Source: an uncultured Bifidobacteriaceae bacterium (GTDB taxonomy: Bacteria; Bacteroidota; Bacteroidia; UKL13-3). From it: 64,000 nucleotides of DNA. Made by a program: the position numbers and the translations under genes. The stretch spans positions 112,640 to 176,639 of the forward strand of contig CAZHTC010000003.1 of assembly GCA_964535575.1 (NCBI GenBank), in the 5' to 3' direction. The notes beneath the pieces are model-generated. The model was not told the origin of the DNA, ran no database searches, and worked only from the letters and a program-made list of their open reading frames with translations. Positions within the stretch are counted from its first letter, which is position 1. The number at the start of each line of letters is the position of its first letter. This document shows, piece after piece, positions 7,653-36,097 of the stretch.

Positions 7653-8672
7653 ATGATGCAGGAAGAATTTAGCATTTCCTTAAAACCATACAACACCTTT
7701 GGGATTGATGTGCAGGCTGATAAGTTGGTGCACATCCAAACACAGGAACAGTTAAAAGAACTTATTCGCAATGGGGCATTTACCACCGGCCCTTTTTTAA
7801 TTTTAGGAGGCGGAAGCAACGTGCTGTTTACAAAAGATGTGAACGGACTGGTTGTAAGAAACGAATTAAAAGGCATTGAGGTGATCAAGGAGGATGACAG
7901 CTATGTGTGGGTGAAAGCAATGGGCGGAGAAATATGGCATGAGTTTGTACTTTGGAGCATAGAACGGAATTTTGGCGGCATTGAGAATCTTTCACTCATT
8001 CCGGGTACTGTGGGTGCTGCACCCATGCAAAATATAGGCGCTTATGGAGTGGAGATTAAAGATACATTTGATAGTTTGGAGGCCTTCGATTTGAAAACCG
8101 GAGCATTAAAAGTTTTTTCTCAAGGCGATTGCAGGTTTGGATATAGGGAAAGCATATTTAAAAATGAGGCTAAAGGAAGCTATTTTATTGTTTCGGTTAC
8201 GTTCAAATTGAACAAACATCCGGTGTTTAATAATTCTTACGGAGCCATACAACAAGTGCTGGAACAAAACGGGGTGAAGGAATTATCCATTAAAGCAATA
8301 AGCGATGCGGTTATAGCAATCCGAAGCAGCAAATTGCCCAATCCTTCCGTAATTGGAAATGCCGGGAGTTTTTTCAAAAATCCCGAAATAGACATAACTC
8401 AGTTCAACACATTAAAGCAACAATATTCTTCTATTGTGGGGTATCCCACCTCGTCCGGTAAAATTAAAGTTGCGGCAGGGTGGCTTATTGAACAATGCGG
8501 GTGGAAGGGAAAGCGTGTTGGCAATACCGGTTCGCATAAAGATCAGGCATTGGTTCTGGTGAATTACGGAGGGGTAAAAGGAGAGGAAGTATATCAGTTA
8601 GCCGAAGCCATTAAAAAGTCGGTAGCTGATAAATTCGGGATTAACATACAAATGGAAGTGAATATTATCTGA
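7653..8672 (+). CDS. murB: UDP-N-acetylenolpyruvoylglucosamine reductase
   Basis: LKPYNTFGID...ILGGGSNVLF...IPGTVGAAPMQNIGAYGVE...CRFGYRESIFK...GNAGSFFKNP...KVAAGWLIEQCGWKG is collinear with E. coli MurB. Confidence 0.9.
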   Translation: MMQEEFSISLKPYNTFGIDVQADKLVHIQTQEQLKELIRNGAFTTGPFLILGGGSNVLFTKDVNGLVVRNELKGIEVIKEDDSYVWVKAMGGEIWHEFVLWSIERNFGGIENLSLIPGTVGAAPMQNIGAYGVEIKDTFDSLEAFDLKTGALKVFSQGDCRFGYRESIFKNEAKGSYFIVSVTFKLNKHPVFNNSYGAIQQVLEQNGVKELSIKAISDAVIAIRSSKLPNPSVIGNAGSFFKNPEIDITQFNTLKQQYSSIVGYPTSSGKIKVAAGWLIEQCGWKGKRVGNTGSHKDQALVLVNYGGVKGEEVYQLAEAIKKSVADKFGINIQMEVNII

Positions 8673-8739
8673 TAAGATTCATATTTCTTTAACGCATAAA
8701 AATTACCTGCCTCTTTTTATTTTCGTTGATATTTGTGAC

Positions 8740-9627
8740 ATGCCCCGTAAATGTTTCAGTATTATTGCGTGTAGCATTCTGTTGTGTTGCGAGATCGTTT
8801 GCACTCCTGCAACAAAGGATTCAAACGAAAAACCGTTAGAAAAAAAGCAAACGGAAGATTTAAATAAACCACCGGTTGATACTTTTTCTGCTCCGGTTGA
8901 GTTGGTAGGTTATCAATTGATACCTCATGATTCAGTAAACCTGAGCGATAGTTTAACCAAAGCAGTGATTTGTGCATTAAACCGCATGGATGCCTATCAT
9001 TTGGGCAGGGCTGATTCACTTGTTATACCCAATATAATTACAGAAGATTTTCTTCGTTACACTCCATTCCCAACTGAGTGCAGTTCATTGAAAGAAATTC
9101 CAAAATGTATTCTAATTTCTTACCCTTTACAGGCTTTTGCGGGTTACGAAAACGGGAAATTGATAAGGTGGGGGCCGGTAAGTTTGGGCAAACAATCTTC
9201 ACCCACACCACTCGGACTTTTTTACTGTAACTGGAAATCAAGGAAAACAGTAAGCACCATTAATCCAGAATGGATTATGGAGTGGTATATTAATCTCGAT
9301 AACCGTTTGGGTGTTTCCATGCACCAATATGATTTACCAGGTTATCCTGCTTCGCACGCCTGTGTAAGGTTGTTAAAACACGATGCTGTTTTTTTGTACC
9401 GATGGACGGATTCCTGGCAATTAAAAGATGATTGGAATATATTGCGTTACGGGACTCCTGTACTTATTTTTGGGTCTTATGTATTCAAAACTTCATCACC
9501 CTGGTTTAAAAACGGAGAAATGTTGACCATGCGGGAGGATGAACTTACCAAAGAAGTTTCACCCTATTATGCAGAATTGATGCAAAGGCTGCAACCCACC
9601 GGTGGTAGCATTGGACCTTCACCTTAA
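8740..9627 (+). CDS. L,D-transpeptidase (YkuD) domain protein
   Basis: The catalytic-type motif GYPASHACVRL resembles the SHGC(I/V)RL signature. A signal peptide with several Cys residues is present. Confidence 0.5.
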   Translation: MPRKCFSIIACSILLCCEIVCTPATKDSNEKPLEKKQTEDLNKPPVDTFSAPVELVGYQLIPHDSVNLSDSLTKAVICALNRMDAYHLGRADSLVIPNIITEDFLRYTPFPTECSSLKEIPKCILISYPLQAFAGYENGKLIRWGPVSLGKQSSPTPLGLFYCNWKSRKTVSTINPEWIMEWYINLDNRLGVSMHQYDLPGYPASHACVRLLKHDAVFLYRWTDSWQLKDDWNILRYGTPVLIFGSYVFKTSSPWFKNGEMLTMREDELTKEVSPYYAELMQRLQPTGGSIGPSP

Positions 9628-21279: not shown

Positions 21280-23190
21280 GTGGGGGCTCCCGGCATATAT
21301 CAGGTTTTAAAACAATATTGGGGATATGAACAGTTTCGACCGTTGCAGGAAGAAATTATTCAATCGGTGCTTGCCGGAAAAGATACGTTGGCACTGTTGC
21401 CCACCGGTGGCGGAAAATCACTTTGCTTTCAGGTTCCTGCTTTAGTTTCTGAGGGTATTTGTGTGGTGGTTTCGCCACTTATCGCACTAATGAAAGATCA
21501 GGTGGAGAATTTGCGCGCACGTGGAATCAAAGCCGAAGCGGTTTATTCAGGCATGTCATCGAGAGAAATAGATCGTATACTCGATAATTGCGCTTATGGA
21601 GATATTCGTTTTCTTTATGTTTCGCCCGAGCGTTTATCAACCGATTTGTTTAAGGCCCGCGTGCAAAAAATGAAAGTAAATTTATTAGCGGTGGATGAAG
21701 CACATTGTATTTCGCAATGGGGATACGATTTCAGGCCCGAGTATTTGCAAATTGCCGAGATACGTCCTTTGCTCAAAGGGGTTCCCGTTTTAGCCTTAAC
21801 AGCGAGTGCTACAAAGCAGGTAGTAGAGGATATTCAACAGCGATTGCAATTCCCGAAATTGAATGTTTTCAGAAAAAGTTTTGAGCGCAAGAATCTTCAT
21901 TACCACGTCAGGACTGTTGAAGACAAAAATGCCAAAATGATTGACGTGTGCCGCAATGTAAAAGGCACTGGCATTGTGTATGTACGAAACCGCAGGTCCA
22001 CCAAAGAACTTGCAGCCCTGCTGGTAAAAAATAAAATCAGTGCCGATTTTTACCATGCCGGACTTACGCATAAAGAACGAGAACAGAAACAAAACAACTG
22101 GAAACAAAACAAAACAAGGGTAATGGTTTGTACTAATGCTTTTGGAATGGGCATAGATAAACCCGATGTGCGCTTTGTGGTGCATTACGAAATTCCGGAT
22201 GGCCCCGAAGCTTATTATCAGGAAGCAGGAAGGGCTGGCAGAGATGAAGAAAAGGCATTTGCGGTTTTACTCTTTAACAAGGCTGATAAAACTGAGGCCG
22301 AACTGAAACTTAAAAACAGCATTCCTAAGGAGGAAGATATAAAAAGAGTATACAATGCATTGGGAGCTTACCTTAATATAGCTATAGGTGCTGGCGAAAT
22401 GCAAACTTACCAGTTCGATTTGGCCCAGTTTGCACAACGGTTTAAAGTACCCGGGCCACTAGCCTACAACAGCCTTAAGATTTTGGAGCAGGAAGGTTTT
22501 ATTCGCCTTTCAGATGCTATCCATGAGCCGTCAAGAGTGATGTTTACCGTGAACAATGCCGAACTTTACCGCTTTCAGGTAGCTCATGCGCATTTCGACC
22601 CATTTGTTAAAATGATTCTCCGTTTATATGGCGGTATGTTCGATGAATATGTAATCATTCATGAAGAAGATATTGCTGCCAAGCTGAAAATAACGGCTGC
22701 TGAAGTAGTAACGTTTTTAGACCAGTTAAAACAATACAATCTTATTGATTATATAAAACAAACCGATAGCCCTAAAGTTACTTTTGTTAAAGAACGATTT
22801 AATTCTTCCAATTTACGCATCGATAAAAAACTTCTTCATTTCAGAGAAGAGGTTCAAACAACACGATTAAAAGCAGTGATTGGATATGCCGAACAATATA
22901 CGGTGTGCCGAAGCCGTTACCTGTTACATTATTTTGATGAGGTAAACACGGGCGACTGTGGAGTATGCGATGTGTGTTTATTGAAAAATGAACTCGACCT
23001 TACCGATAGAGAAATTGAAGAAATTTTTAAAGCTATACAGGCTGAGCTTAACAACGGGTTATGTGACACAAAAATGCTGGTAAAAGCTTTACGTTTGCAG
23101 GAGAAAAAAGTACTGGCCGTTTTGCAACTTGCGTTGGAACACGACCTTGTTTATACCGATAAAAAGGGGATGCTTAATTGGAAGAAATGA
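21280..23190 (+). CDS. recQ: ATP-dependent DNA helicase RecQ
   Basis: GYEQFRPLQEEII, LLPTGGGKSLCFQVPAL, DEAHCISQWGYDFRPEY, a zinc-binding Cys cluster and HRDC-like C-terminus are present. The start is a GTG directly after an in-frame stop. Confidence 0.9.
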   Translation: MGAPGIYQVLKQYWGYEQFRPLQEEIIQSVLAGKDTLALLPTGGGKSLCFQVPALVSEGICVVVSPLIALMKDQVENLRARGIKAEAVYSGMSSREIDRILDNCAYGDIRFLYVSPERLSTDLFKARVQKMKVNLLAVDEAHCISQWGYDFRPEYLQIAEIRPLLKGVPVLALTASATKQVVEDIQQRLQFPKLNVFRKSFERKNLHYHVRTVEDKNAKMIDVCRNVKGTGIVYVRNRRSTKELAALLVKNKISADFYHAGLTHKEREQKQNNWKQNKTRVMVCTNAFGMGIDKPDVRFVVHYEIPDGPEAYYQEAGRAGRDEEKAFAVLLFNKADKTEAELKLKNSIPKEEDIKRVYNALGAYLNIAIGAGEMQTYQFDLAQFAQRFKVPGPLAYNSLKILEQEGFIRLSDAIHEPSRVMFTVNNAELYRFQVAHAHFDPFVKMILRLYGGMFDEYVIIHEEDIAAKLKITAAEVVTFLDQLKQYNLIDYIKQTDSPKVTFVKERFNSSNLRIDKKLLHFREEVQTTRLKAVIGYAEQYTVCRSRYLLHYFDEVNTGDCGVCDVCLLKNELDLTDREIEEIFKAIQAELNNGLCDTKMLVKALRLQEKKVLAVLQLALEHDLVYTDKKGMLNWKK

Positions 23191-24269
23191 AAACCGTAAT
23201 ATTCACAGTAATCAATGACCTTACTTATGATCAGCGCATGCAGAAAATTTGCACCACGCTGGCCAAAAGCGGGTGGGAGGTTACTTTGGTAGGGAGAAAA
23301 CTACCGGCATCGGTTTCTTTAACTTCCCCAGGCTACTCTGAAAAGCGACTTTCCTGCCTTTTTCTTAAAGGCAAGTTGTTTTATGTTGAATACAATATCC
23401 GATTGTTTTTTTATTTGTTGTTCCGCTCAACTGAGGTGATAAGTGCAGTGGATGCCGACACGCTGCTTCCTTGTTTTCTGGTCTCAAAAATCAGGTCGCG
23501 CAAGTTGGTATTTGATGCACATGAATATTTTTCGGAAGTGCCCGAACTGGCAGAAAGACCAAAAACAAAAAAAGTGTGGCAATGGGTGGAACGAACTTTT
23601 ATTCCGGCTGTAAAAAATAAATATACGGTAAGTGAAAGTCTGGCCGAGGAGTTTACCAAAAAATTCAACACATCATTTGAAGTGATACGAAATATGCCGT
23701 TTAAAAGTGTGGCCAACCCAGAACTTTCAGACGAAAAGTTTATTCTTTATCAGGGAGCATTAAATGAAGGAAGGGCGTTGGAACAGTTAATTTTTGCCAT
23801 GCACCGTATTCCAATCAAACTGAAAATTGCCGGTGAGGGAGATTTAAGTATAACTTTAAGAGAACTTGTGCAGAAGGAAGGCCTTTCGGATAAAGTGGAG
23901 TTTTTGGGTTTTGTCTCTCCGCAGCAGTTGAGGGAACTTACTGCAAAGGCCTATCTAGGCTACAATTTATTAACCAATAAAGGACTGAGTTACTATTATT
24001 CGCTCAGCAATAAATTTTTTGATTACCTGCAGGCAGGTGTTCCTTCCATTAACCCCGATTTCCCTGAGTATAGAAAAATAATAGCACAACACAAGATCGG
24101 TATTACATGTCATCCTGATTCGGATATTATTGCCTCGGAGGTGAACCGTATTTTGGCAAATGAGCACTTTTATCATAATTTGCAAACTGAATGTATGCGC
24201 ACACGGCATCTTTTTACATGGGAAAACGAATCAAATAGGTTAATTAAATTGTATGAAGCACTCCGGTGA
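23187..24269 (+). CDS. Glycosyltransferase (GT4-like)
   Basis: The N-terminal Rossmann-like domain reads MKTVIFTVINDLTYDQRMQK. The C-terminal domain carries E-x7-E-like motifs. Its ATG overlaps the recQ stop as ATGA. Confidence 0.55.
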   Translation: MKTVIFTVINDLTYDQRMQKICTTLAKSGWEVTLVGRKLPASVSLTSPGYSEKRLSCLFLKGKLFYVEYNIRLFFYLLFRSTEVISAVDADTLLPCFLVSKIRSRKLVFDAHEYFSEVPELAERPKTKKVWQWVERTFIPAVKNKYTVSESLAEEFTKKFNTSFEVIRNMPFKSVANPELSDEKFILYQGALNEGRALEQLIFAMHRIPIKLKIAGEGDLSITLRELVQKEGLSDKVEFLGFVSPQQLRELTAKAYLGYNLLTNKGLSYYYSLSNKFFDYLQAGVPSINPDFPEYRKIIAQHKIGITCHPDSDIIASEVNRILANEHFYHNLQTECMRTRHLFTWENESNRLIKLYEALR

Positions 24270-25392
24270 GCATATTCATCTTATTTCGTTTGATGTACCA
24301 TTTCCTGCCGATTATGGGGGTGTGATCGATGTATTTTACAAAATCAAGGCACTTCATGAACTCGGAGTGAAAATTCATCTACACGCCTATCACTACGGTC
24401 GGAATGTGGCTCCGCAGCTGGAAGAATTATGCCATAAAGTTTACTACTATAAGCGCAAAACATATAAAAATCCGTTTATAAGCCGGGTGCCATACATTGT
24501 AAATAGCCGCAATGATGATAATTTATTAAGAAATCTTTTGTATGATGATCATCCCATTATTTTCGAAGGACTTCATACCACCTATCATTTATCGGATAAA
24601 TTGCTTCGCAAGCGATTAAAAATTGTGCGCATGCACAATATAGAGCATCATTACTACGCCAAACTGGAAGAGGCAGAGAAAAATTTTTTTAAAAAGTATT
24701 TCTTCAAAACGGAGTCGGAGAAACTAAGAATCTATGAACGAGTTTTAAATCAGGCTCAACTTATTGCGGCCATCTCACCTGCCGATTTTGGTTACTTTTC
24801 AAAAAAGTTTAAATCGGTTTTTTACCTGCCCGTTTTTCATTCCAATCAACAGGTAACTATTGATGGGAAAAGCGAACCATATGTGTTGTATCATGGCAAT
24901 TTGGCTGTAGGTGAAAATGATGTAGCCGCCTTATTTTTACTGCGCGAAATTTTTAATGATATTACCGATATAAAATTGGTTATTGCAGGCAACAATCCCT
25001 CTGCCGAATTACTGAATCAAGTGCAGGGGCGACCAAATGTTGAATTAATCACATCAGTTTCCACCGCAGGCATTGACGAACTTATTGCTAAAGCACATAT
25101 AAACTTACTTCCTACATTTCAGGATACGGGAATAAAACTGAAACTCATTAATGCGCTTTACAAAGGAAAATTTTGTATGGTAAACAGTATGATGGTTAAA
25201 AGTACAGGGCTCGAGAAATTGTGTATTATAAAAGATAAGCCCGATCAAATGAAAAATGAGATTAAACGATTAATGAAACAGGCTTTTGATTTGAATCAGA
25301 TTAACCAGCGAAAAGAATTACTTGAGAATAGTTTTTGCAACGAGAAAAATGCCGCTCTGCTTGTTTCGGAAATTGATAAACTCAGAACTTAA
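24253..25392 (+). CDS. Glycosyltransferase family 1-like protein
   Basis: 379 aa. The C-terminal region LVIAGNNPSAELL...LLPTFQDTGIKLKLINALYKG resembles a GT-B nucleotide-sugar-binding domain. It overlaps the upstream gene by 17 nt. Confidence 0.45.
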   Translation: MKHSGEHIHLISFDVPFPADYGGVIDVFYKIKALHELGVKIHLHAYHYGRNVAPQLEELCHKVYYYKRKTYKNPFISRVPYIVNSRNDDNLLRNLLYDDHPIIFEGLHTTYHLSDKLLRKRLKIVRMHNIEHHYYAKLEEAEKNFFKKYFFKTESEKLRIYERVLNQAQLIAAISPADFGYFSKKFKSVFYLPVFHSNQQVTIDGKSEPYVLYHGNLAVGENDVAALFLLREIFNDITDIKLVIAGNNPSAELLNQVQGRPNVELITSVSTAGIDELIAKAHINLLPTFQDTGIKLKLINALYKGKFCMVNSMMVKSTGLEKLCIIKDKPDQMKNEIKRLMKQAFDLNQINQRKELLENSFCNEKNAALLVSEIDKLRT

Positions 25393-26065
25393 AATTTTCT
25401 ATCAGACGCCCGTTTTCACATTTAAGAATTCGGCTGTTAAATTTATCAATCAGTCGGTAATCGTGGGTAGCCATTATAACAGCCGTACCGCCCGATGCAA
25501 TCTGGTGTAGCAGTTTCATAATTTCATCCGAAGTTTCCGGATCAAGATTTCCGGTTGGCTCATCGGCAAGTATCACTTCCGGGTTATTAAGCAAAGCACG
25601 GGCTATCACCACGCGTTGTTGCTCCCCGCCCGAAAGTTCATGCGGCATTTTAAAATCTTTGGTAGCCAGCCCCACTTTTTCCAGCACTTCTACAATTCGA
25701 TTTTTAATTTCATCGTCCTTTTTCCAACCGGTTGCCTTAAGTACAAATTCCAGATTTTTAAAAACACTTCTGTCGGTGAGTAATTGAAAATCCTGAAATA
25801 CGATTCCGAGTTTCCTTCTCAGATAAGGGATATCTTTTTTCTTCAGCTCCTTAAGTGCGGTTCCGGCAATAGTGGCTTCTCCATTGGTCACAGGTACTTC
25901 TCCATACAGGGTTTTGAGTAATGACGATTTTCCGCTTCCGGTTTTCCCTATCAGGTAGCAAAACTCCCCCTGAAATACCGAAAAAGTAACATCATCAAGA
26001 ATGAGATTCTTTTGCTGAAAGATATCTACTTTTTGAAAAGAAATAATTTGCGTTTTTTCAGTCAT
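25382..26065 (-). CDS. ftsE: Cell-division ABC ATPase FtsE
   Basis: Walker [16 protein letters not shown] signature [15 protein letters not shown] and Walker [12 protein letters not shown] are present. The length is 227 aa. Confidence 0.85.
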
Positions 26066-26328: not shown

Positions 26329-28095
26329 ATGAAATTCAAACAGACGTATTTAGCTGCGCTTATTACTTTAGGAATGGTGGTAGTGGCTGGTTGTAGCGTT
26401 AAGAACAACATGGGTAAAAACAGGTATCAGGTAGAACCTGAGGTGCTTGAGGTAAACGGGGATTCAGTTGCATTTACTGTTACTGCTATTGTTCCCGAAA
26501 AATCCATTAACCCAAAAGCTAATATCAAATTTGAGCCTGTGCTTAAAACGGATAAAGGCGAAACAGCACTGCGCACCCTCACTGTAGGTGGTGAAAGTGC
26601 CGAAGGAGTTGATGTGAAAATTAATTCTAAAACCGGAGGAAAGGTTTCGTACACAACTAAATTCAAGTATTCAGGAGACATGCGCAAAGCCAAAGTAATG
26701 TCGGGCTTTAGCGTGAAGGTTAAAGAAGACTACAAGTCGTTGAATGAATTGGAAGGTGTTGTAAAAGAAATTGCACAGGGAACCATCACCACTGCATATT
26801 TGGTCCGCACCAATGTAGCTCCAAAAGTTGCCGGAGATGCATATGCAGCTGAAATGTCAGGCAAATCGGTTGAAATTTATTTCCCTCAGGATAAGGCAAA
26901 ATTTGATCTTGCTTTCGGAATCAAGAAACTGAAAATTACCAATAAAGGTCAGGTTGAAGAGTTAAAAAAGATTCTTAAAAATGACCCTAAATTTGTACCG
27001 GGATATATCAAACTTACTTCGTTTGCTTCGCCTGACGGAGAATTGCAACGCAATGGTGGATTGGCAAAAAGCCGTTCTGAATCAAGTTATGCTTATTTCC
27101 AGAAAGAACTCAAAAAATTAGGTTTTGCTCAGGCCAATGACTCTAATTTTACCATGGGGTTTGAGGTAAGTGAGGATTGGGACGGAGTTAGAAAAGCTGT
27201 AGAAGCGTCTACACTTGCCGATAAAAACGAAATGCTCGTAATCATCAATAATAAAGGCATCAGTGATGACCAGCGTGAAGAGTCACTTCGTAACAACCAT
27301 CGCAAATCATACGACTGGTTAATCAGCGATGTATTTCCAAAACTGAGAAGATCTTCACTTACAGTAATGGGTTCTACTCCTTTGCGCACTGAAGCTGAAA
27401 TTATTGCTTTGGCCAAAGCAATGAAATTTGACAGTCTTAATGCTTCGGAATTATATCACCTCGGATACATTATGCCTGATGCAGACATGAAATTAAGAAT
27501 GGCCGATTATTATATTACCCGTTTTCCTGAAGACTGGAGAGCGTATAATGATAAAGCCGTATTGTTAATGTATCAGGCTAAATGGAATGATGCGTTAACC
27601 GAATTGATGAAGGCTAATAAACTGGCTGGCGCAAATGAGGCTATGTTGCAGCACAATGCGGGTATTTGTTTGTTGAACATGGGTAACCGTGCAAAAGCAG
27701 AAGAAATGTTTACCAAATCCAATGCTTCTTATGGATTAGGTGTAATTGCCATTCAAAAAGGAAACTATGCCGATGCCATTAACTACTTCAATAAATCCGG
27801 AGTAAAAGACGGAAACGTGGCTTTAGCTTATTTGCTCAACAAACAAACCAATGAGGCAAAAGCTGTATTGGAGTCAATGAAGCCAGAGCAAATGAACAGT
27901 TTCTCTTACTACCTGATGGCTATTGTAGGAGCCCGTACCGGTAACGTGGATATGTGTACCACCAACCTCAGCCGTTCGTTGGTTGAAGCGGGTAAAGAGG
28001 GAGTAGATTTAAATGCTGCAAAAAAATATGCAGCCGAAGATTTGGAATTCCGTGCCTTCTTCAGCAATCCTAATTTCCAGGCTGCTGTTAAATAA
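26329..28095 (+). CDS. Lipoprotein with C-terminal TPR-like repeats
   Basis: Lipobox VVAGCS. The C-terminal third has repeated A/Y/L-rich helical pairs (EAMLQHNAGICLLNMGNRAKAEEMF...) consistent with TPR repeats. Confidence 0.5.
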   Translation: MKFKQTYLAALITLGMVVVAGCSVKNNMGKNRYQVEPEVLEVNGDSVAFTVTAIVPEKSINPKANIKFEPVLKTDKGETALRTLTVGGESAEGVDVKINSKTGGKVSYTTKFKYSGDMRKAKVMSGFSVKVKEDYKSLNELEGVVKEIAQGTITTAYLVRTNVAPKVAGDAYAAEMSGKSVEIYFPQDKAKFDLAFGIKKLKITNKGQVEELKKILKNDPKFVPGYIKLTSFASPDGELQRNGGLAKSRSESSYAYFQKELKKLGFAQANDSNFTMGFEVSEDWDGVRKAVEASTLADKNEMLVIINNKGISDDQREESLRNNHRKSYDWLISDVFPKLRRSSLTVMGSTPLRTEAEIIALAKAMKFDSLNASELYHLGYIMPDADMKLRMADYYITRFPEDWRAYNDKAVLLMYQAKWNDALTELMKANKLAGANEAMLQHNAGICLLNMGNRAKAEEMFTKSNASYGLGVIAIQKGNYADAINYFNKSGVKDGNVALAYLLNKQTNEAKAVLESMKPEQMNSFSYYLMAIVGARTGNVDMCTTNLSRSLVEAGKEGVDLNAAKKYAAEDLEFRAFFSNPNFQAAVK

Positions 28096-30702: not shown

Positions 30703-31473
30703 ATGAATGCACTTAAAAAATTATCTCTGGCTGCACTTCTTATGTCGGCACTTCCGTCTTTTGCGCAATTGCAGGACGAAAAAAATGTTACTATCACCAT
30801 GGATCTTCAACCCATTCTTCAGTTAAACATGACAACTGCTGATCAGGTGAATTTTGTATTTGACGATATTGCCAGCTACTATGGTGGGTTGGTTCGTTAC
30901 GGGGCTACCACCCTTAAAGTATCAGCTTCTGTAACCTGGGATTTATATGCCGTGGGAACATCAACAAATGGTACAAGCTGGGACCAACAGGTGAAATATG
31001 GTACAGCGGCTAATCCAAATGCAATTGGAGCACTTCCTTTATCTGCACTTGAATTACACCAAAGAGGGGCTAACAACTATGATGCGAATGCTACCGGGGC
31101 ACAAACCGATTACAGTGCTCAGTTTTCTCCGGCTCAAACAGCTGCCGTGGGTGTAAATTGTATTTATACAAATGCAAATCCATATATCGCACCTACCGCT
31201 GCCGATAAATACATTCAGGGCCATAAAGGAACTGTTGCCGCACAGGATGGAGCACCTGGAGGAAGTTACCTAACAGCTACCACTTCGGCCGGTAGCGGTA
31301 ACATAAGTGATTATATGTTTATCATTGACTATCGTATTTTGCCCGGATTACCAGCAGTATTTCCGAATGCTGGAGATAATGCAGGAACGTCTCAATCCCT
31401 CACTGCGGGGCAGTATGCTCAACCCGGTGTGTATACTATGAATGTTAAATATGTATTACTCGAGGATCAATAG
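30703..31473 (+). CDS. Secreted subunit-like protein A (paralogue of 32512..33153), candidate fibre subunit
   Basis: SPI-type signal ...ALPSFAQ. The mature N-terminus has an alternating hydrophobic strand (VTITMDLQPILQLNM). The C-terminal motif DYMFIIDYRILPGL...GVYTMNVKYVLLEDQ is shared with the second copy. There is no T9SS CTD. Confidence 0.5.
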   Translation: MNALKKLSLAALLMSALPSFAQLQDEKNVTITMDLQPILQLNMTTADQVNFVFDDIASYYGGLVRYGATTLKVSASVTWDLYAVGTSTNGTSWDQQVKYGTAANPNAIGALPLSALELHQRGANNYDANATGAQTDYSAQFSPAQTAAVGVNCIYTNANPYIAPTAADKYIQGHKGTVAAQDGAPGGSYLTATTSAGSGNISDYMFIIDYRILPGLPAVFPNAGDNAGTSQSLTAGQYAQPGVYTMNVKYVLLEDQ

Positions 31474-31605
31474 GTTGATTGTTTTTTCATATGCCCAAAT
31501 TCGTAGTCGGTCCGAAAGGATCGGCTGCGTTTTTTTATCGGGCGGAAAACACAATTCCAATAATAAGAACGAGGACTAAGTTATCAGACCTAAACAAAAG
31601 GGCAG

Positions 31606-32484
31606 ATGAAAAACAACAAACCAAATTTATTTTTATTCCTATTCTTTTTCGGAATAATCGGCACGTTAAAGTCGCAGGTAATTTCAACAAGTGATTTGAA
31701 ATCGGATACAACTACAATTGCCGATGAAGGGGTTGCGGTAACTCCGTCCAGCATCAGATTATTTCTTAGACCTGGCGAAACAATTACTAGGGAAATAAAG
31801 GTTACCAACAAAACAAAAAGGGCCTATTCCTTTAGTGTGGCTTTTAATGATTTTAATATGGGCGAAAATGGAAAACCTCAAAACATGGACAGTGCTTTTC
31901 ATAAGTTCTCTCTGTCGAAGTGGGCCGTTGCATCGCCTATGTTTTTTGAGGTTCAGCCTGGTCAGGTACAAAAAGTTCAACTTACTATCACTATTCCGGC
32001 TGATGAGTCGGGGAAAGTGGCTGCCTGGACAATTATGAGTATTGATCAGGTGGCTAAAAGAGAACAGGTGGTAACAGCAAGCAGTGATGCCAAATCGGTT
32101 GCACTGGGAGTAATTCCTAGTTTTGGCTTTGGGATTTATGTGTATCAAAACCCACCTGATGCCGGTGTACCAAAACTTGAAATTGACAAATTTGAAAAAA
32201 CCACTGATGGGAAAGATAAAGAGAAAAGATTATTGCTCCATGTAAAGTCGGAAGGCAATGCCATAGGTTTTTGTCATTCGTATATTGAACTTACTAATAC
32301 TTCAACAGGGGAGTTAATCAAATTGCCGGTGCGCCACTTTACTATTCTCCCGGGTTTTGAACGGGCCATCTATTTCAGTTTACCTGCACAACTTTCAAAA
32401 GGAAAATATTCTGTCATGGCAGTGATAGATTACGGAAGTAAGGAAGATATAAAGGCAGCCGAACTTGAGTTGCAGGTAGAATAA
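31606..32484 (+). CDS. Periplasmic protein with a PapD/FimC-like pilus-chaperone signature
   Basis: After the signal peptide, VAVTPSSIRLFLRPGETITREIKVTNKTKRAYSFSVAFND aligns by eye with FimC GVALGATRVIYPAGQKQEQLAVTNNDENSTYLIQSWVEN. Shared positions are the invariant Arg, P-G, VTN and the trailing aromatic. Further Ig-like segments follow. Confidence 0.45.
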   Translation: MKNNKPNLFLFLFFFGIIGTLKSQVISTSDLKSDTTTIADEGVAVTPSSIRLFLRPGETITREIKVTNKTKRAYSFSVAFNDFNMGENGKPQNMDSAFHKFSLSKWAVASPMFFEVQPGQVQKVQLTITIPADESGKVAAWTIMSIDQVAKREQVVTASSDAKSVALGVIPSFGFGIYVYQNPPDAGVPKLEIDKFEKTTDGKDKEKRLLLHVKSEGNAIGFCHSYIELTNTSTGELIKLPVRHFTILPGFERAIYFSLPAQLSKGKYSVMAVIDYGSKEDIKAAELELQVE

Positions 32485-32511: not shown

Positions 32512-33153
32512 ATGGAAATACAAAAACAATATTTCGTTCTTTTAGGCACATTGTTGCTATGTGCCGCCACTACACAGGTGAATGCCCAGTGCGGGCCACC
32601 GGCAGCAAGCAATTGTCAGGCAGTTCCTGCCAGCAATATGTTTATTACCGGAAACACTAATCTTGACTTTATTTTCGATTCATTCGGCAAATATAGCAGT
32701 GGTATTACCATAAGCGGGGCCACACAGTTACGCCTCACAGTTTTGCCAAATAATGCTTCCTGTAAATGGAAATTAAGGGTGTATATCGACAACAATCCTT
32801 CAGCCCCTACACCGTTAAATGAATGGGAAACACTTTCAGGCTATGGAGGAACAGGAAATATTCCGCAAATAGATCTAATGGAGGTTAGAATTTATAACGG
32901 ATGCAATACCCCTATCAACAGCGGAATTTATCAAAATTTCACCCCACTAAATGGTTCTTATATCGATATCATAAATGATATAGTGCTTAATCCTGCAGGT
33001 TCTTGTGTTTCCAATGTAAATGGTGCCGGAAGTTATCTCACCAATTACAAGGAGTACAGTTTTACCATCGACTACCGCCTGCAGCCCGGATTGCTTTATA
33101 AGGCTGGGGCTTACCAATTAACACTAAGGTTTTGTCTGGTAGAAGATGTATAG
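32512..33153 (+). CDS. Secreted subunit-like protein B (paralogue of 30703..31473)
   Basis: Signal peptide ...TQVNAQ. Cys pairs are present. The C-terminus YSFTIDYRLQPGLLYKAGAYQLTLRFCLVEDV shares the IDYR-x-x-PGL ... aromatic/hydrophobic ... L-x-ED motif with protein A. Confidence 0.5.
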   Translation: MEIQKQYFVLLGTLLLCAATTQVNAQCGPPAASNCQAVPASNMFITGNTNLDFIFDSFGKYSSGITISGATQLRLTVLPNNASCKWKLRVYIDNNPSAPTPLNEWETLSGYGGTGNIPQIDLMEVRIYNGCNTPINSGIYQNFTPLNGSYIDIINDIVLNPAGSCVSNVNGAGSYLTNYKEYSFTIDYRLQPGLLYKAGAYQLTLRFCLVEDV

Positions 33154-36097
33154 CCGCAAAACGATAGCAGGGATTAAGGTCGAACCAAAAAGAAAAATAT
33201 TCTTTTGTTTCCACCTTTTTTTGTTTCTTCTTGTTTTTACCTATTCAATAAGTTTTGCTCAAAATAACCCAGCGCAGCTTCTTATTTTTCCAAAGCAAAA
33301 GATAATACGCATTGAAGAAATGGCAATAGTAAGCAATGTAGTACTTATAAGAAACAATTCAAACGCGGAGGTAAGGTTTTCGATAGAAGCAACCATGCCC
33401 AAAGGATGGAAGCTGTTAAATACAAAAGCTGTTTATACGGTGAATGGAAACGATTCGCTTTTTGTTCCGGTAAGAATTATTCCGACAGGTCCTCTTAAGG
33501 GAAATACCGAGTATATTATTGACCTTATTGTTTATAATACATCAAAAGTAAGGTTAAACTCGGCCTCTTTCTCACTGCTTATATTGAAGAAAACAAACTG
33601 GACCCTTGGGGTTGAACCATCAAATAAAATTTACTTTCTTAACAATTCAACTAAAACCAATTTTACGGTTCGCTATTCTAACAATGGAGATGACGATGAA
33701 CCGGTGCTTACTACTTTCAAACAAACAGATAAAAAAATTTCCATCACTGATAGTTCGGGTAATGTAATAGAGAATTACAAAGATATTTTTACTTTACGGT
33801 CGAGGCAGGATACACAGGTAACTTTTAATGTTTCGTTTGCCGAAAATACGCATAATATTAAGCGGGTTGATTTGGATAACCATCTCCCAAATTCAACGGA
33901 TGAAGAGCGAAAATTCTTGCTTTTTCTTCAATCGGCTGAGGCAAACAGCAAAGACAATAATAGTACATTCAGAAAGAGCGAGAAAATTGAATTTATTAAA
34001 CTGTCAAACCGCAAAAAAATTAATCCATATGCCTCAGATGCACTGCCGTTGGTAATGGAAAATAATATTTTTAACGTTATGGGAATACAACCGGTAATGT
34101 ACCTTAATCTGCGAGGGAATACATTACTTGAAAATAATTCCAATCTGTTTTATTATGCCCAAACAAGCTACTCCAGTTATTTCACAACTCCCGATTTTGC
34201 CCGAAATATTGCTTATTACGCGGGTTACTTTCATGAAAAGGGAGATATTCAGATAGGAGATATGAGCGGTTCAGGTACAATAGGTTTTCAAAGTTTCGGA
34301 CGCGGGATTAAAGGAAGTTATAATTTTACCAAGCGTCACAATGTTGGTGGTTTTTTGCTAAAGTCTCCCCGGTTGTCTGATCCCAATGGAAGCGTTTCGT
34401 ACGGGGCCAATTATAAGTTTTCATTCAACCGCTCTGATTATGCATCTGCACAGGTAAGCCGATCTGAAAATTTGTTGCATCATACTTCAAGTAATTTTGT
34501 AACTGCCACTACACGGATGAATTTATTCAAAAATCACGGGGTAACGCTTGGAGGAGGAATAAGTTCAAGAAACCATCCCGTGAGTAATCTGAAAAAGAAC
34601 GGAACATATGTTAACTTTAACTATTCGGGATTGTTTCTGCAAAATCGGCTTTCGGCTGTATTGCGTATAAGTAATTTGTCAAAGTCATTTGGTGAAAGTG
34701 GCTCGGGGCGTTTTTATGTGTATCACCAAACCGGGTTTACTGTTTCAAAAAAATTAATGCTCATGATGCAAAATAATTATACCACCATGACTACAGTCGG
34801 CAATGCCGGGTATAATTACTTTAACAATCAACTGTTTTTTAATATTAAACAGCAAAGAGGTGCAGTAGTGCCAAGCCTTTTATTCAACACTCAAAATACG
34901 TTTGGTTTGAGAAGACACTTTAAAGGAGTGGGTTTTGATTATAATTATTATCATATACTCTCAAATATTAAAGTCTCTACTTCTCTCAGAGCGGGCTACA
35001 ATAAACTGATTGATTATCGTGATGTATCTTCATTTTTTTCAGCTAACGCCAATCTGCTTACACAGTTCAGAACGTTAAGTTTTACCATGCGGTATTTCTA
35101 CGGACCTACCGTGGTGAGAAATGCCGATGATATAAAAAATCTGCGCAGGTATCCGCAAACTTTTTTCACCTCCCTTCAGCATCAGCTAATTTTTAAAAAG
35201 GAATATTTTGTTTTGCAAAACAACCTCAATTATTCTTACTATAATCAGTTTTTCAGCCACACGTTCGGGTATTTTCCCGAACTTTATCTGTTTACACAAA
35301 ATGGTTGGCGTTTCAGAGCGGGGGTTGGTGTTTCAATGAATGTAAGTAATCCGCGAAAAGCGCTCGAAATGCAAAACCCCGGACAAATTCCAGGTAGCAA
35401 TGGCGTGAGCACCAATATTCTTACAACCAACCTGAATGTTCAGTTTGGGGTGCGTAAACAATTTGGAATACCTGTGCCTGCACAATTTACTCATCGCAGG
35501 TTTGTTACCATTAATTATTTATGCTTTATGGATTTAAACGGAAACAGGATTAAAGATAAAGCCGAACCCGAGCTTGAAAACATTGTTATAAGAACCGGGG
35601 ATGAAGAACTGATGACAGATTTAAACGGGCAGGCCGAACTCATTAATCTGGAGGCGGGGCGCTACAAAGTGAGTCTGATAAATCTTAGTGAATCTAAAAC
35701 ATGGTTTCCGGTTATTGGGGATAGTGTATTAATGGATCGGTCTAAAACCATAATGGTTCCTTTTGTTAAAGGATCAAAAATTACCGGACAAATATACCTG
35801 CAGCGCGAAAGATATGCGGTAGATGAGGAAATAAGTCTCGACTTATCGCGTATAGTGGTTACTGCCGAGGATTCGATGGGGAATAAATACCGAACCATTA
35901 CACGAATGGATGGTACTTTTGAGTTGTTTGTACCAAATGCCCGCTATATCCTTAATTTAGATGCCGGAGTTTGGGGCGATCAGTTTACGGTTGTCAACAA
36001 TAACATGATTGTTGAGCTCAATCTTAAAACGGAAAATACGTTTGTTTCTTTTCAGGTAGTGGAGCGGCAGAGAAAACTACAGATAAAAAAATTCTGA
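33146..36097 (+). CDS. Large outer-membrane protein, candidate usher-like assembly platform
   Basis: 983 aa. A signal peptide is followed by an Ig-like N-terminal region and a roughly 500-aa N/S/Y/F/G-rich region with alternating beta-strand pattern. Two Cna-B/CarboxypepD_reg-like C-terminal domains follow (DLNGNRIKDKAEPELENIVIRTGDEE...). The terminal Phe is typical of an outer-membrane barrel. The start overlaps the stop of subunit B. Confidence 0.4.
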   Translation: MYSRKTIAGIKVEPKRKIFFCFHLFLFLLVFTYSISFAQNNPAQLLIFPKQKIIRIEEMAIVSNVVLIRNNSNAEVRFSIEATMPKGWKLLNTKAVYTVNGNDSLFVPVRIIPTGPLKGNTEYIIDLIVYNTSKVRLNSASFSLLILKKTNWTLGVEPSNKIYFLNNSTKTNFTVRYSNNGDDDEPVLTTFKQTDKKISITDSSGNVIENYKDIFTLRSRQDTQVTFNVSFAENTHNIKRVDLDNHLPNSTDEERKFLLFLQSAEANSKDNNSTFRKSEKIEFIKLSNRKKINPYASDALPLVMENNIFNVMGIQPVMYLNLRGNTLLENNSNLFYYAQTSYSSYFTTPDFARNIAYYAGYFHEKGDIQIGDMSGSGTIGFQSFGRGIKGSYNFTKRHNVGGFLLKSPRLSDPNGSVSYGANYKFSFNRSDYASAQVSRSENLLHHTSSNFVTATTRMNLFKNHGVTLGGGISSRNHPVSNLKKNGTYVNFNYSGLFLQNRLSAVLRISNLSKSFGESGSGRFYVYHQTGFTVSKKLMLMMQNNYTTMTTVGNAGYNYFNNQLFFNIKQQRGAVVPSLLFNTQNTFGLRRHFKGVGFDYNYYHILSNIKVSTSLRAGYNKLIDYRDVSSFFSANANLLTQFRTLSFTMRYFYGPTVVRNADDIKNLRRYPQTFFTSLQHQLIFKKEYFVLQNNLNYSYYNQFFSHTFGYFPELYLFTQNGWRFRAGVGVSMNVSNPRKALEMQNPGQIPGSNGVSTNILTTNLNVQFGVRKQFGIPVPAQFTHRRFVTINYLCFMDLNGNRIKDKAEPELENIVIRTGDEELMTDLNGQAELINLEAGRYKVSLINLSESKTWFPVIGDSVLMDRSKTIMVPFVKGSKITGQIYLQRERYAVDEEISLDLSRIVVTAEDSMGNKYRTITRMDGTFELFVPNARYILNLDAGVWGDQFTVVNNNMIVELNLKTENTFVSFQVVERQRKLQIKKF

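Follow-up and report, generated by a model that had tools for sequence, protein, structure and literature searches.

A stretch of 64,000 nucleotides from an uncultured bacterium (contig CAZHTC010000003.1, positions 112,640 to 176,639; hereafter the window) encodes a 292-residue chaperone-like protein beside the genes for a pilin (subA), a pilin paralogue (subB) and an outer-membrane barrel protein. This chaperone-like protein probably serves as the assembly chaperone, in the periplasm, for a pilus operon of four genes (pilin, chaperone, tip subunit and outer-membrane barrel) that is found across uncultured Bacteroidota and builds tubular fibrils of the TLP-1 type. The evidence consists of the fold of the protein, its remote homology to both the chaperones of chaperone-usher systems and the WxLIP family, the strict linkage of the four genes, and the identity of the pilin with a fibre formed by donor-strand exchange. 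TLP-1 fibrils, imaged in 2024 from pond water, are 8-nm tubules, and within them the immunoglobulin-like (Ig-like) fold of protomer n is completed by the N-terminal strand of protomer n+4 (PMC11494351). They were attributed to "uncharacterized proteins of unknown species" that "may represent uncharacterized bacterial pili"; the paper describes the fibre only, without a gene cluster, and chaperones and ushers are confined to its reference list (PMC11494351). No description of an operon, chaperone or usher of TLP-1 was found in the literature searched, and the operon described here probably supplies the assembly machinery and the producer that were missing.

The open reading frame (ORF) of the chaperone-like protein is a real, conserved gene. 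A word-indexed search identified 45 homologues, and an exhaustive profile search matched 6219 representatives of 50%-identity clusters at E<=1e-3, the best 150 of which were inspected; WxLIP or PapD relatives might appear further down, in the distant tail. Relatives occur in 177 species-level genomes. The best 80 are all metagenome-assembled genomes (MAGs), nearly all of which are labelled Bacteroidota. Three bins among the operon loci carry discordant labels (L026, L032 and similar: Comamonas sp., Bifidobacteriaceae and Chitinophaga pinensis); since their operon sequences are typical of the Bacteroidia set, the labels probably stem from mistakes in binning or naming and not from a wider host range. 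In an alignment of 40 close relatives a hydrophobic signal peptide (residues 1-23) is followed by invariant Gln24. In Bacteroidota, proteins cleaved by signal peptidase I typically begin with Gln (pyroglutamate), a habit that this residue would fit. The mature stretch after Q24 is variable in the same alignment and has low confidence in the AlphaFold2 (AF2) model. As it has a signal peptide but neither a lipobox Cys nor a helix at the C-terminus, the protein is putatively periplasmic.

The AF2 model, based on the 40-sequence alignment, has a predicted local distance difference test (pLDDT) score of 86 and consists of two beta-sandwich domains, with strands at residues 43-148 and 174-181 for the N-domain and 191-291 for the C-domain. 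Apart from the signal peptide (residues 5-18) the model is free of helices, and its last element is a beta strand that stops at residue 291. As in the PapD-type arrangement, the two Ig-like sandwiches form one L-shaped unit. The last strand of the N-domain is preceded by a 25-residue loop of lower confidence (pLDDT 65-67 at residues 150-170). Foldseek ranks WxLIP first (9i25_C, 5.6e-12, with 9i1y also at the top), after which pilus chaperones fill most of the top 50 (CfaA 6.9e-10, CsuC 2.5e-9, Caf1M 7.5e-9, FimC about 2e-8 and PapD 7e-8). Structural matches comprise EfmWxLIP1 (12.7) as well as the "PapD-like" domains MSP, ASH and Hydin, the latter matches covering a single domain.

Remote homology was evaluated by hhalign, using an alignment of 171 family members. 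Comparison sets for WxLIP and WxL consisted of four WxLIPs and three small WxL proteins, all annotated records from Firmicute plasmids; those for chaperone-usher systems came from E. coli K-12 and held six chaperones, five ushers and 14 fimbrial subunits. The family matches WxLIP over 229 columns (98.5%, E 1.5e-15) and the six E. coli chaperones over 206 columns that span both domains (94.6%, E 7e-8), in the latter case with V-T-N, the last N-domain strand and D-Y-G aligned. Reversed and column-shuffled targets, included as controls, stayed at or below 2.6%. A direct comparison of the E. coli chaperones with WxLIP yields 2.4% (E 0.02, 85 columns). Since it matches both groups, which fail to match each other, the family behaves as a bridge in this test. 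Taken singly, each domain reaches only 46-49% against the chaperones. The N-domain alone gives 97.8% with WxLIP versus 45.7% with the PapD family, and the C-domain alone gives 49% (E 1.7e-4) with the PapD family versus 15% with WxLIP. Judged from these profiles the N-domain is much closer to WxLIP and the C-domain slightly closer to the PapD type.

Profile searches concur for WxLIP. A profile of divergent family members searched against the PDB identified EfmWxLIP1 (9i1y, 9i25) over both domains at E 5e-8, the best classical chaperone being FaeE at E 1.1. The Pfam match of the window protein to WxLIP_PGBD (PF06030, DUF916), at E 0.0031 and 18 bits, lies under the 27.3 cut-off. In two scans of relatives WxLIP_PGBD was found in 31/40 and 31/43 sequences (best E 1e-7) and PF11797 (WxLIP_HBD) in 2/43; PapD_N was sub-threshold in 10/40 and 4/43 (best E 6e-4), and PapD_C was not among the 25 most-matched Pfam families of either scan. 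The 292-residue sequence by itself retrieved only noise from the PDB, and hhalign reached 0.4% when the initial alignment of 40 sequences was compared with FimC alone; the homology became detectable because the 171-sequence family and multi-sequence targets were used.

A preliminary description of the gene, made from the DNA letters, had proposed a PapD/FimC-like chaperone. The peptides it quoted all occur in the ORF (VTPSSIRLFLRPGETITREIKVTNKTKRAYSFSVAFND, residues 45-82; FFEVQPGQVQKVQLTI, residues 112-127; VRHFTILPGFERAIYFSL, residues 242-259), and it is partly supported: it arrived at the correct fold class and the correct likely function, mostly from the wrong residues, and overlooked WxLIP and the identity of the pilus. 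Its Ig-like fold agrees with the two predicted sandwiches and with the chaperones among the Foldseek matches, although WxLIP is nearer than PapD. Of its N-domain hallmarks, V-T-N (with invariant N68) and the aromatic residue after D82 align with V-T-N and S-W of FimC, but the key Arg does not hold. This residue, R51, had been taken for the conserved carboxylate-binding Arg, and is Arg in 12% of the 171 family members; low conservation and alignment register rule it out as the equivalent of FimC Arg8. According to hhalign, Arg8 pairs with Ser49, a position with K or R in 42% of the family, and Lys112, the second basic residue of the FimC cleft, pairs with Tyr178, where K or R make up 8%. PF00345 and PF02753 do not match the window protein even at E<=10. 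The implied membership of the classical PapD/FimC family thus finds no backing in Pfam or at these two positions, and it is profile homology, gene linkage and pilin identity, rather than the residues that had been cited, that support a chaperone role in the cluster.

Conservation points to other sites. In the 171-sequence alignment R253 (ILPGxxR) of the C-domain is the only strongly conserved basic residue, and D275-Y-G of the same domain aligns with N-D-Y-G of PapD-type C-domains. Just after the lower-confidence loop, hhalign pairs the conserved segment SFGFGIYVYQNPP with the G1 strand of FimC, LQLAIISRIKLYYRP. The surrounding segment, residues 165-184, displays alternating hydrophobics, and its conserved positions are F175, V/I177, V/I179, Y180, Q181 and P183. 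Residues ~165-181 are a candidate for the strand that is donated to the subunit groove.

The pilin provides the link with a fibre of solved structure. In a phmmer search of the PDB the subA product of the window matched 9ikk (E 6.7e-45, residues 25-255 against 3-236 of 237) and 9ikj (E 5e-44), and the subA family profile matched 9ikj/9ikk ("TLP-1", "TLP-2") at E 1.3e-65. BLASTP gives 39.5% identity over the entire fibre protomer (E down to 5e-49); the PDB sequence of TLP-1 was built from density, which makes identities approximate. Because identity is about 40%, the organism of the window is not the producer of the imaged fibres. Fibre residue 2 pairs with residue 24 of the subA precursor, and the first modelled residues of the fibre fall exactly after the conserved Gln23; subA is a full-length homologue, and the N-terminus of the fibre corresponds to the residue that follows the predicted signal-peptide cleavage. 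Its N-terminal donor strand (QLxDEKNVTxTMDLQP) and its C-terminal strand (PGVYTMNVKYVLLEDQ) are near-invariant in the family alignment, with NVTxTMDLQP and GVYTxNVK[YF]V as conserved motifs. Pfam contains no match for 33 subA relatives at E<=10. W80-D-L and Y-V-L in subA, and W-K-L and F-C-L in subB, were considered as possible WxL domains and rejected: Pfam returned nothing, hhalign against the three small WxL proteins gave 0.9% for subA and 0.5% for subB, and the D-x-R context that has been published for WxL motif 1 is missing.

The four genes stand together on one strand in 73 of the 81 related loci. Of the remaining eight, seven are truncated by the end of a contig, and the eighth (L078) has the chaperone-like gene alone. 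The order chaperone-A-B-barrel is found in 62 loci, A-B-barrel-chaperone in six and A-chaperone-B-barrel, the order of the window, in two, next to rare variants; that linkage is kept despite rearranged order argues for a functional module. All four proteins have a conserved Gln after the signal peptide (Q23, Q24 and Q26 are invariant, Q39 nearly so). In L078, a locus of 16.7 kb, the gene (7674-8765) encodes 363 residues with a Thr/Ser-rich repeat after the signal peptide, and neither pilin nor barrel genes were recognised in its vicinity. This copy may be an orphan, or its partners may be encoded elsewhere.

The second subunit gene, subB, is a paralogue of subA (BLASTP E 4e-7; hhalign between the families 99.6%), and its profile matches TLP-1 more weakly (E 3e-9). 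Two loci from Flavobacteriales or Bacteroidia MAGs (L064:9988-11325 and L079:10174-11535) have a fusion of 445-453 residues as second subunit gene, in which a subB-like domain (about 43-218) precedes a subA-like one (about 231-452) and the linker (…SLNIEIQPILQL…) resembles a donor strand. Such a fusion looks like a self-complemented two-domain tip subunit, and its subB-subA order is the one expected of a subB that takes up a strand of subA and lies distal to it. Lacking the N-terminal donor-strand segment, subB is the putative acceptor-only tip or initiator subunit.

The barrel protein of 983 residues starts with a signal peptide and two beta-sandwich domains (~45-231), continues with about 24-28 long beta strands (255-776) and ends in two prealbumin-like beta-sandwich domains (786-973), which Pfam detects near the C-terminus in 9-10 of 14 relatives. 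Its first N-terminal domain shows weak similarity to the chaperone N-domain (hhalign 42%, E 2.6e-4). It is an outer-membrane barrel flanked on either side by Ig-like domains, a layout that is reminiscent of ushers but does not allow it to be classified as one. Synteny and the need to cross the outer membrane suggest that it serves as the export platform. Homologues in L031, L039, L050, L052, L062, L066, L068 and L079 are longer (1176-1325 residues). The C-terminal extension of ~200 residues in the L079 homologue appeared SPOR-like by eye, which Pfam did not confirm (no match at E<=0.01).

The following mechanism would be consistent with these data. The four proteins would be exported by Sec and cleaved before the conserved Gln, upon which the pilin would fold as an Ig-like domain that is one strand short. 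The periplasmic chaperone would cap the groove of the pilin by donating its strand ~165-181, located after the flexible loop (donor-strand complementation), and would hand the subunit to the 983-residue barrel protein. The N-terminal strand of the next pilin would then replace the chaperone strand (donor-strand exchange) while the fibre is extruded. Lacking a donor strand, subB would go in first and end up at the distal tip. Candidates for anchoring the subunit C-terminus without Arg8 and Lys112 are Arg253 of the chaperone and an invariant Glu near the subunit C-termini (E255 in subA, E211 in subB).

A number of observations weigh against this chaperone model. Both residues that define the classical chaperone mechanism are replaced, and the four donor-strand-linked protofilaments of TLP-1 (n to n+4) are not obviously explained by a single usher-like pore. 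The barrel protein was rejected on sequence as a homologue of PF00577 ushers: none of its relatives matches PF00577, and hhalign against the five ushers is at background (0.3%) for the whole protein as well as for each domain. The barrel fold match does not discriminate either, since TonB-dependent transporters score as well as FimD. Furthermore, the nearest relatives of the chaperone-like protein in hhalign and Foldseek are WxLIP rather than PapD-type chaperones, and WxLIP has been proposed to bind WxL proteins on the cell wall and keep them stable, which is different from chaperoning them transiently (PMC10599100). In the main rival reading the protein would stay bound to the subunits or to the fibre base as a stable partner or anchor, for instance by tethering the pilus base to peptidoglycan or envelope. 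WxLIP (DUF916/PF06030 plus DUF3324/PF11797; EfmWxLIP1, 9i1y, 9i25 bound to long WxL) likewise has two Ig-like domains in tandem, arranged in the same order, and is the strongest relative in both sequence and structure, as the profile search (E 5e-8), hhalign, Foldseek and the occurrence of WxLIP_PGBD in 31 of 40 relatives agree. Also, WxL clusters combine one WxLIP with two paralogous secreted proteins (PMC10599100), a composition that is mirrored here by one chaperone-like gene adjoining two genes for paralogous secreted beta-rich subunits. Nevertheless we regard a stable partner as rather unlikely. WxLIP is anchored by a C-terminal transmembrane helix, which the window protein lacks; the partners here are TLP-1-type pilins in which no WxL domain (PF13731) is detectable by Pfam or hhalign (<1%); TLP-1 from water was modelled as a homopolymer with no second protein (PMC11494351); and in a diderm the fibre must pass the outer membrane, so that a periplasmic Ig-like protein could not stay bound along it. 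The systems differ moreover in host, Bacillota for WxLIP and diderm Bacteroidota here, and in the additional gene for an outer-membrane barrel of ~1000 residues and the absence of an LPXTG protein. AlphaFold work on WxLIP predicts that a strand of DUF916 inserts into WxL (PMC10599100); papers on structures 9i1y and 9i25 were not found in the literature searched.

That the protein is built into the fibre as a minor structural component (adaptor, terminator or base subunit) is improbable. An Ig-like fold, export across the inner membrane and a gene in the pilus operon are what one would expect of such a component, but both domains of the protein are predicted to be complete sandwiches that are unrelated to the pilin fold, and its structural neighbours in Foldseek are chaperones, not pilins. 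In hhalign the family has no similarity to subA or subB, which are clearly paralogous to each other, and no conserved segment resembling an N-terminal donor strand precedes its first domain, where the mature N-terminus is variable and of low confidence. We give hardly any credence to the idea of a generic periplasmic Ig-fold protein, carbohydrate-binding or scaffolding, that lies beside pilin genes by chance. It would fit the window protein taken alone, for which Pfam offers only sub-threshold matches that include several unrelated-looking Ig families (fn3_5, FixG_C and NPCBM_assoc). It conflicts with the near-complete linkage to the same three partner genes in ~80 divergent genomes with rearranged order, and with significant homology to two families that bind strand-deficient partners.

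The assembly chaperone that we favour would make the operon a donor-strand-exchange pilus system with a chaperone of the PapD superfamily, new in its phylum, its non-usher barrel, its lack of the canonical cleft residues and its tie to an orphan fibre of solved structure. Compared with the classical PapD/FimC, alternate CfaA and archaic CsuC chaperones the window protein is 50-70 residues longer, with a long loop leading into the last strand of the N-domain, and its partner barrel is not a PF00577 usher. Type V pili (FimA/Mfa1) share the phylum Bacteroidota, and their fibres too are held together by Ig-like subunits that exchange strands. Type V pilins are lipoprotein precursors that are matured by proteolysis, and to our knowledge these pili have neither a periplasmic chaperone nor an usher. 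The operon differs from them in that neither subA nor the chaperone-like protein has a lipobox, in its dedicated genes for a two-domain chaperone-like protein and a barrel, and in its pilins, which match no Pfam family and thus no fimbrillin or Mfa family. We know of no chaperone-usher system in Bacteroidota, nor was a description found in the literature searched; going by that literature, the present one would be the first chaperone-usher-like pathway in a phylum otherwise known for lipoprotein-based type V pili.

We tentatively put forward, as a wider interpretation with slightly less than even chances, that the operon is an unrecognised, phylum-wide pilus pathway by which uncultured Bacteroidota make TLP-1, that the chaperone family is an evolutionary bridge between the PapD type and WxLIP, and that the outer-membrane platform forms a new family of non-usher barrels. 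If so, WxL clusters would also work by donor-strand complementation, and the new barrel family must export a fibre of four donor-strand-linked protofilaments. TLP-1 was published without producer, gene context or assembly route, and the window with ~80 loci supplies candidates for all three: uncultured Bacteroidota as producers, the four-gene operon, and its chaperone, tip and outer-membrane components. How an abundant environmental fibre is made can thereby be tested directly, and the double similarity of the family to chaperones and WxLIP offers a hypothesis for the mechanism of Gram-positive WxL surface clusters. Coordinates of the features are listed in the table.

Table. Features of the putative pilus operon, in positions of the window
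Feature	Position	Strand	Remarks
Major pilin subA, TLP-1a/1b protomer homologue	30703-31473	+	256 aa; predicted signal peptide cleaved before invariant Q23
Codons of the Gln after the signal peptide (four proteins)	30769-30771, 31675-31677, 32587-32589, about 33260-33262	+	From alignments
Intrinsic-terminator-like hairpin	31502-31539	+	12-bp stem with 7 G-C pairs, T7 tail; consensus scan and sequence reading
Chaperone-like gene, putative pilus assembly chaperone	31606-32484	+	292 aa; periplasmic (putative), two-domain, PapD-like superfamily
N-terminal Ig-like domain, residues 43-186	31732-32163	+	Closest to WxLIP_PGBD/DUF916; holds invariant N68 (V-T-N) and D82
Candidate donor (G1-like) strand with end of preceding loop, residues 165-184	32098-32157	+	VALGVIPSFGFGIYVYQNPP; from hhalign, AF2 and conservation
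C-terminal Ig-like domain, residues 187-292	32164-32481	+	R253 (ILPGxxR); D275-Y-G motif
Minor subunit subB, pilin paralogue	32512-33153	+	213 aa; four invariant Cys; no N-terminal donor-strand segment
Outer-membrane protein, putative secretion/assembly platform (usher analogue)	33146-36097	+	983 aa; start overlaps the subB stop by 8 nt

The hairpin, a strong one, lies directly 3' of the pilin gene and 67 nt ahead of the chaperone-like gene. In classical fimbrial operons stem-loops after the major-subunit genes raise subunit expression relative to that of the machinery. By analogy the hairpin may attenuate read-through and so increase the ratio of pilin to machinery transcripts; terminator-like sites in the region are, in total, no more numerous than expected from shuffling. 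Several ORFs lie upstream of the operon (23178-25392 and 26329-28095), and the translations of two of them resemble glycosyltransferases by eye. Likewise by eye, an FtsE-like ABC ATPase (25382-26065, - strand) and a secreted protein of 588 residues with an OmpA-like region and TPR-like repeats were noted. Since the flanks vary among related loci, these upstream ORFs are probably unrelated to the pilus operon.
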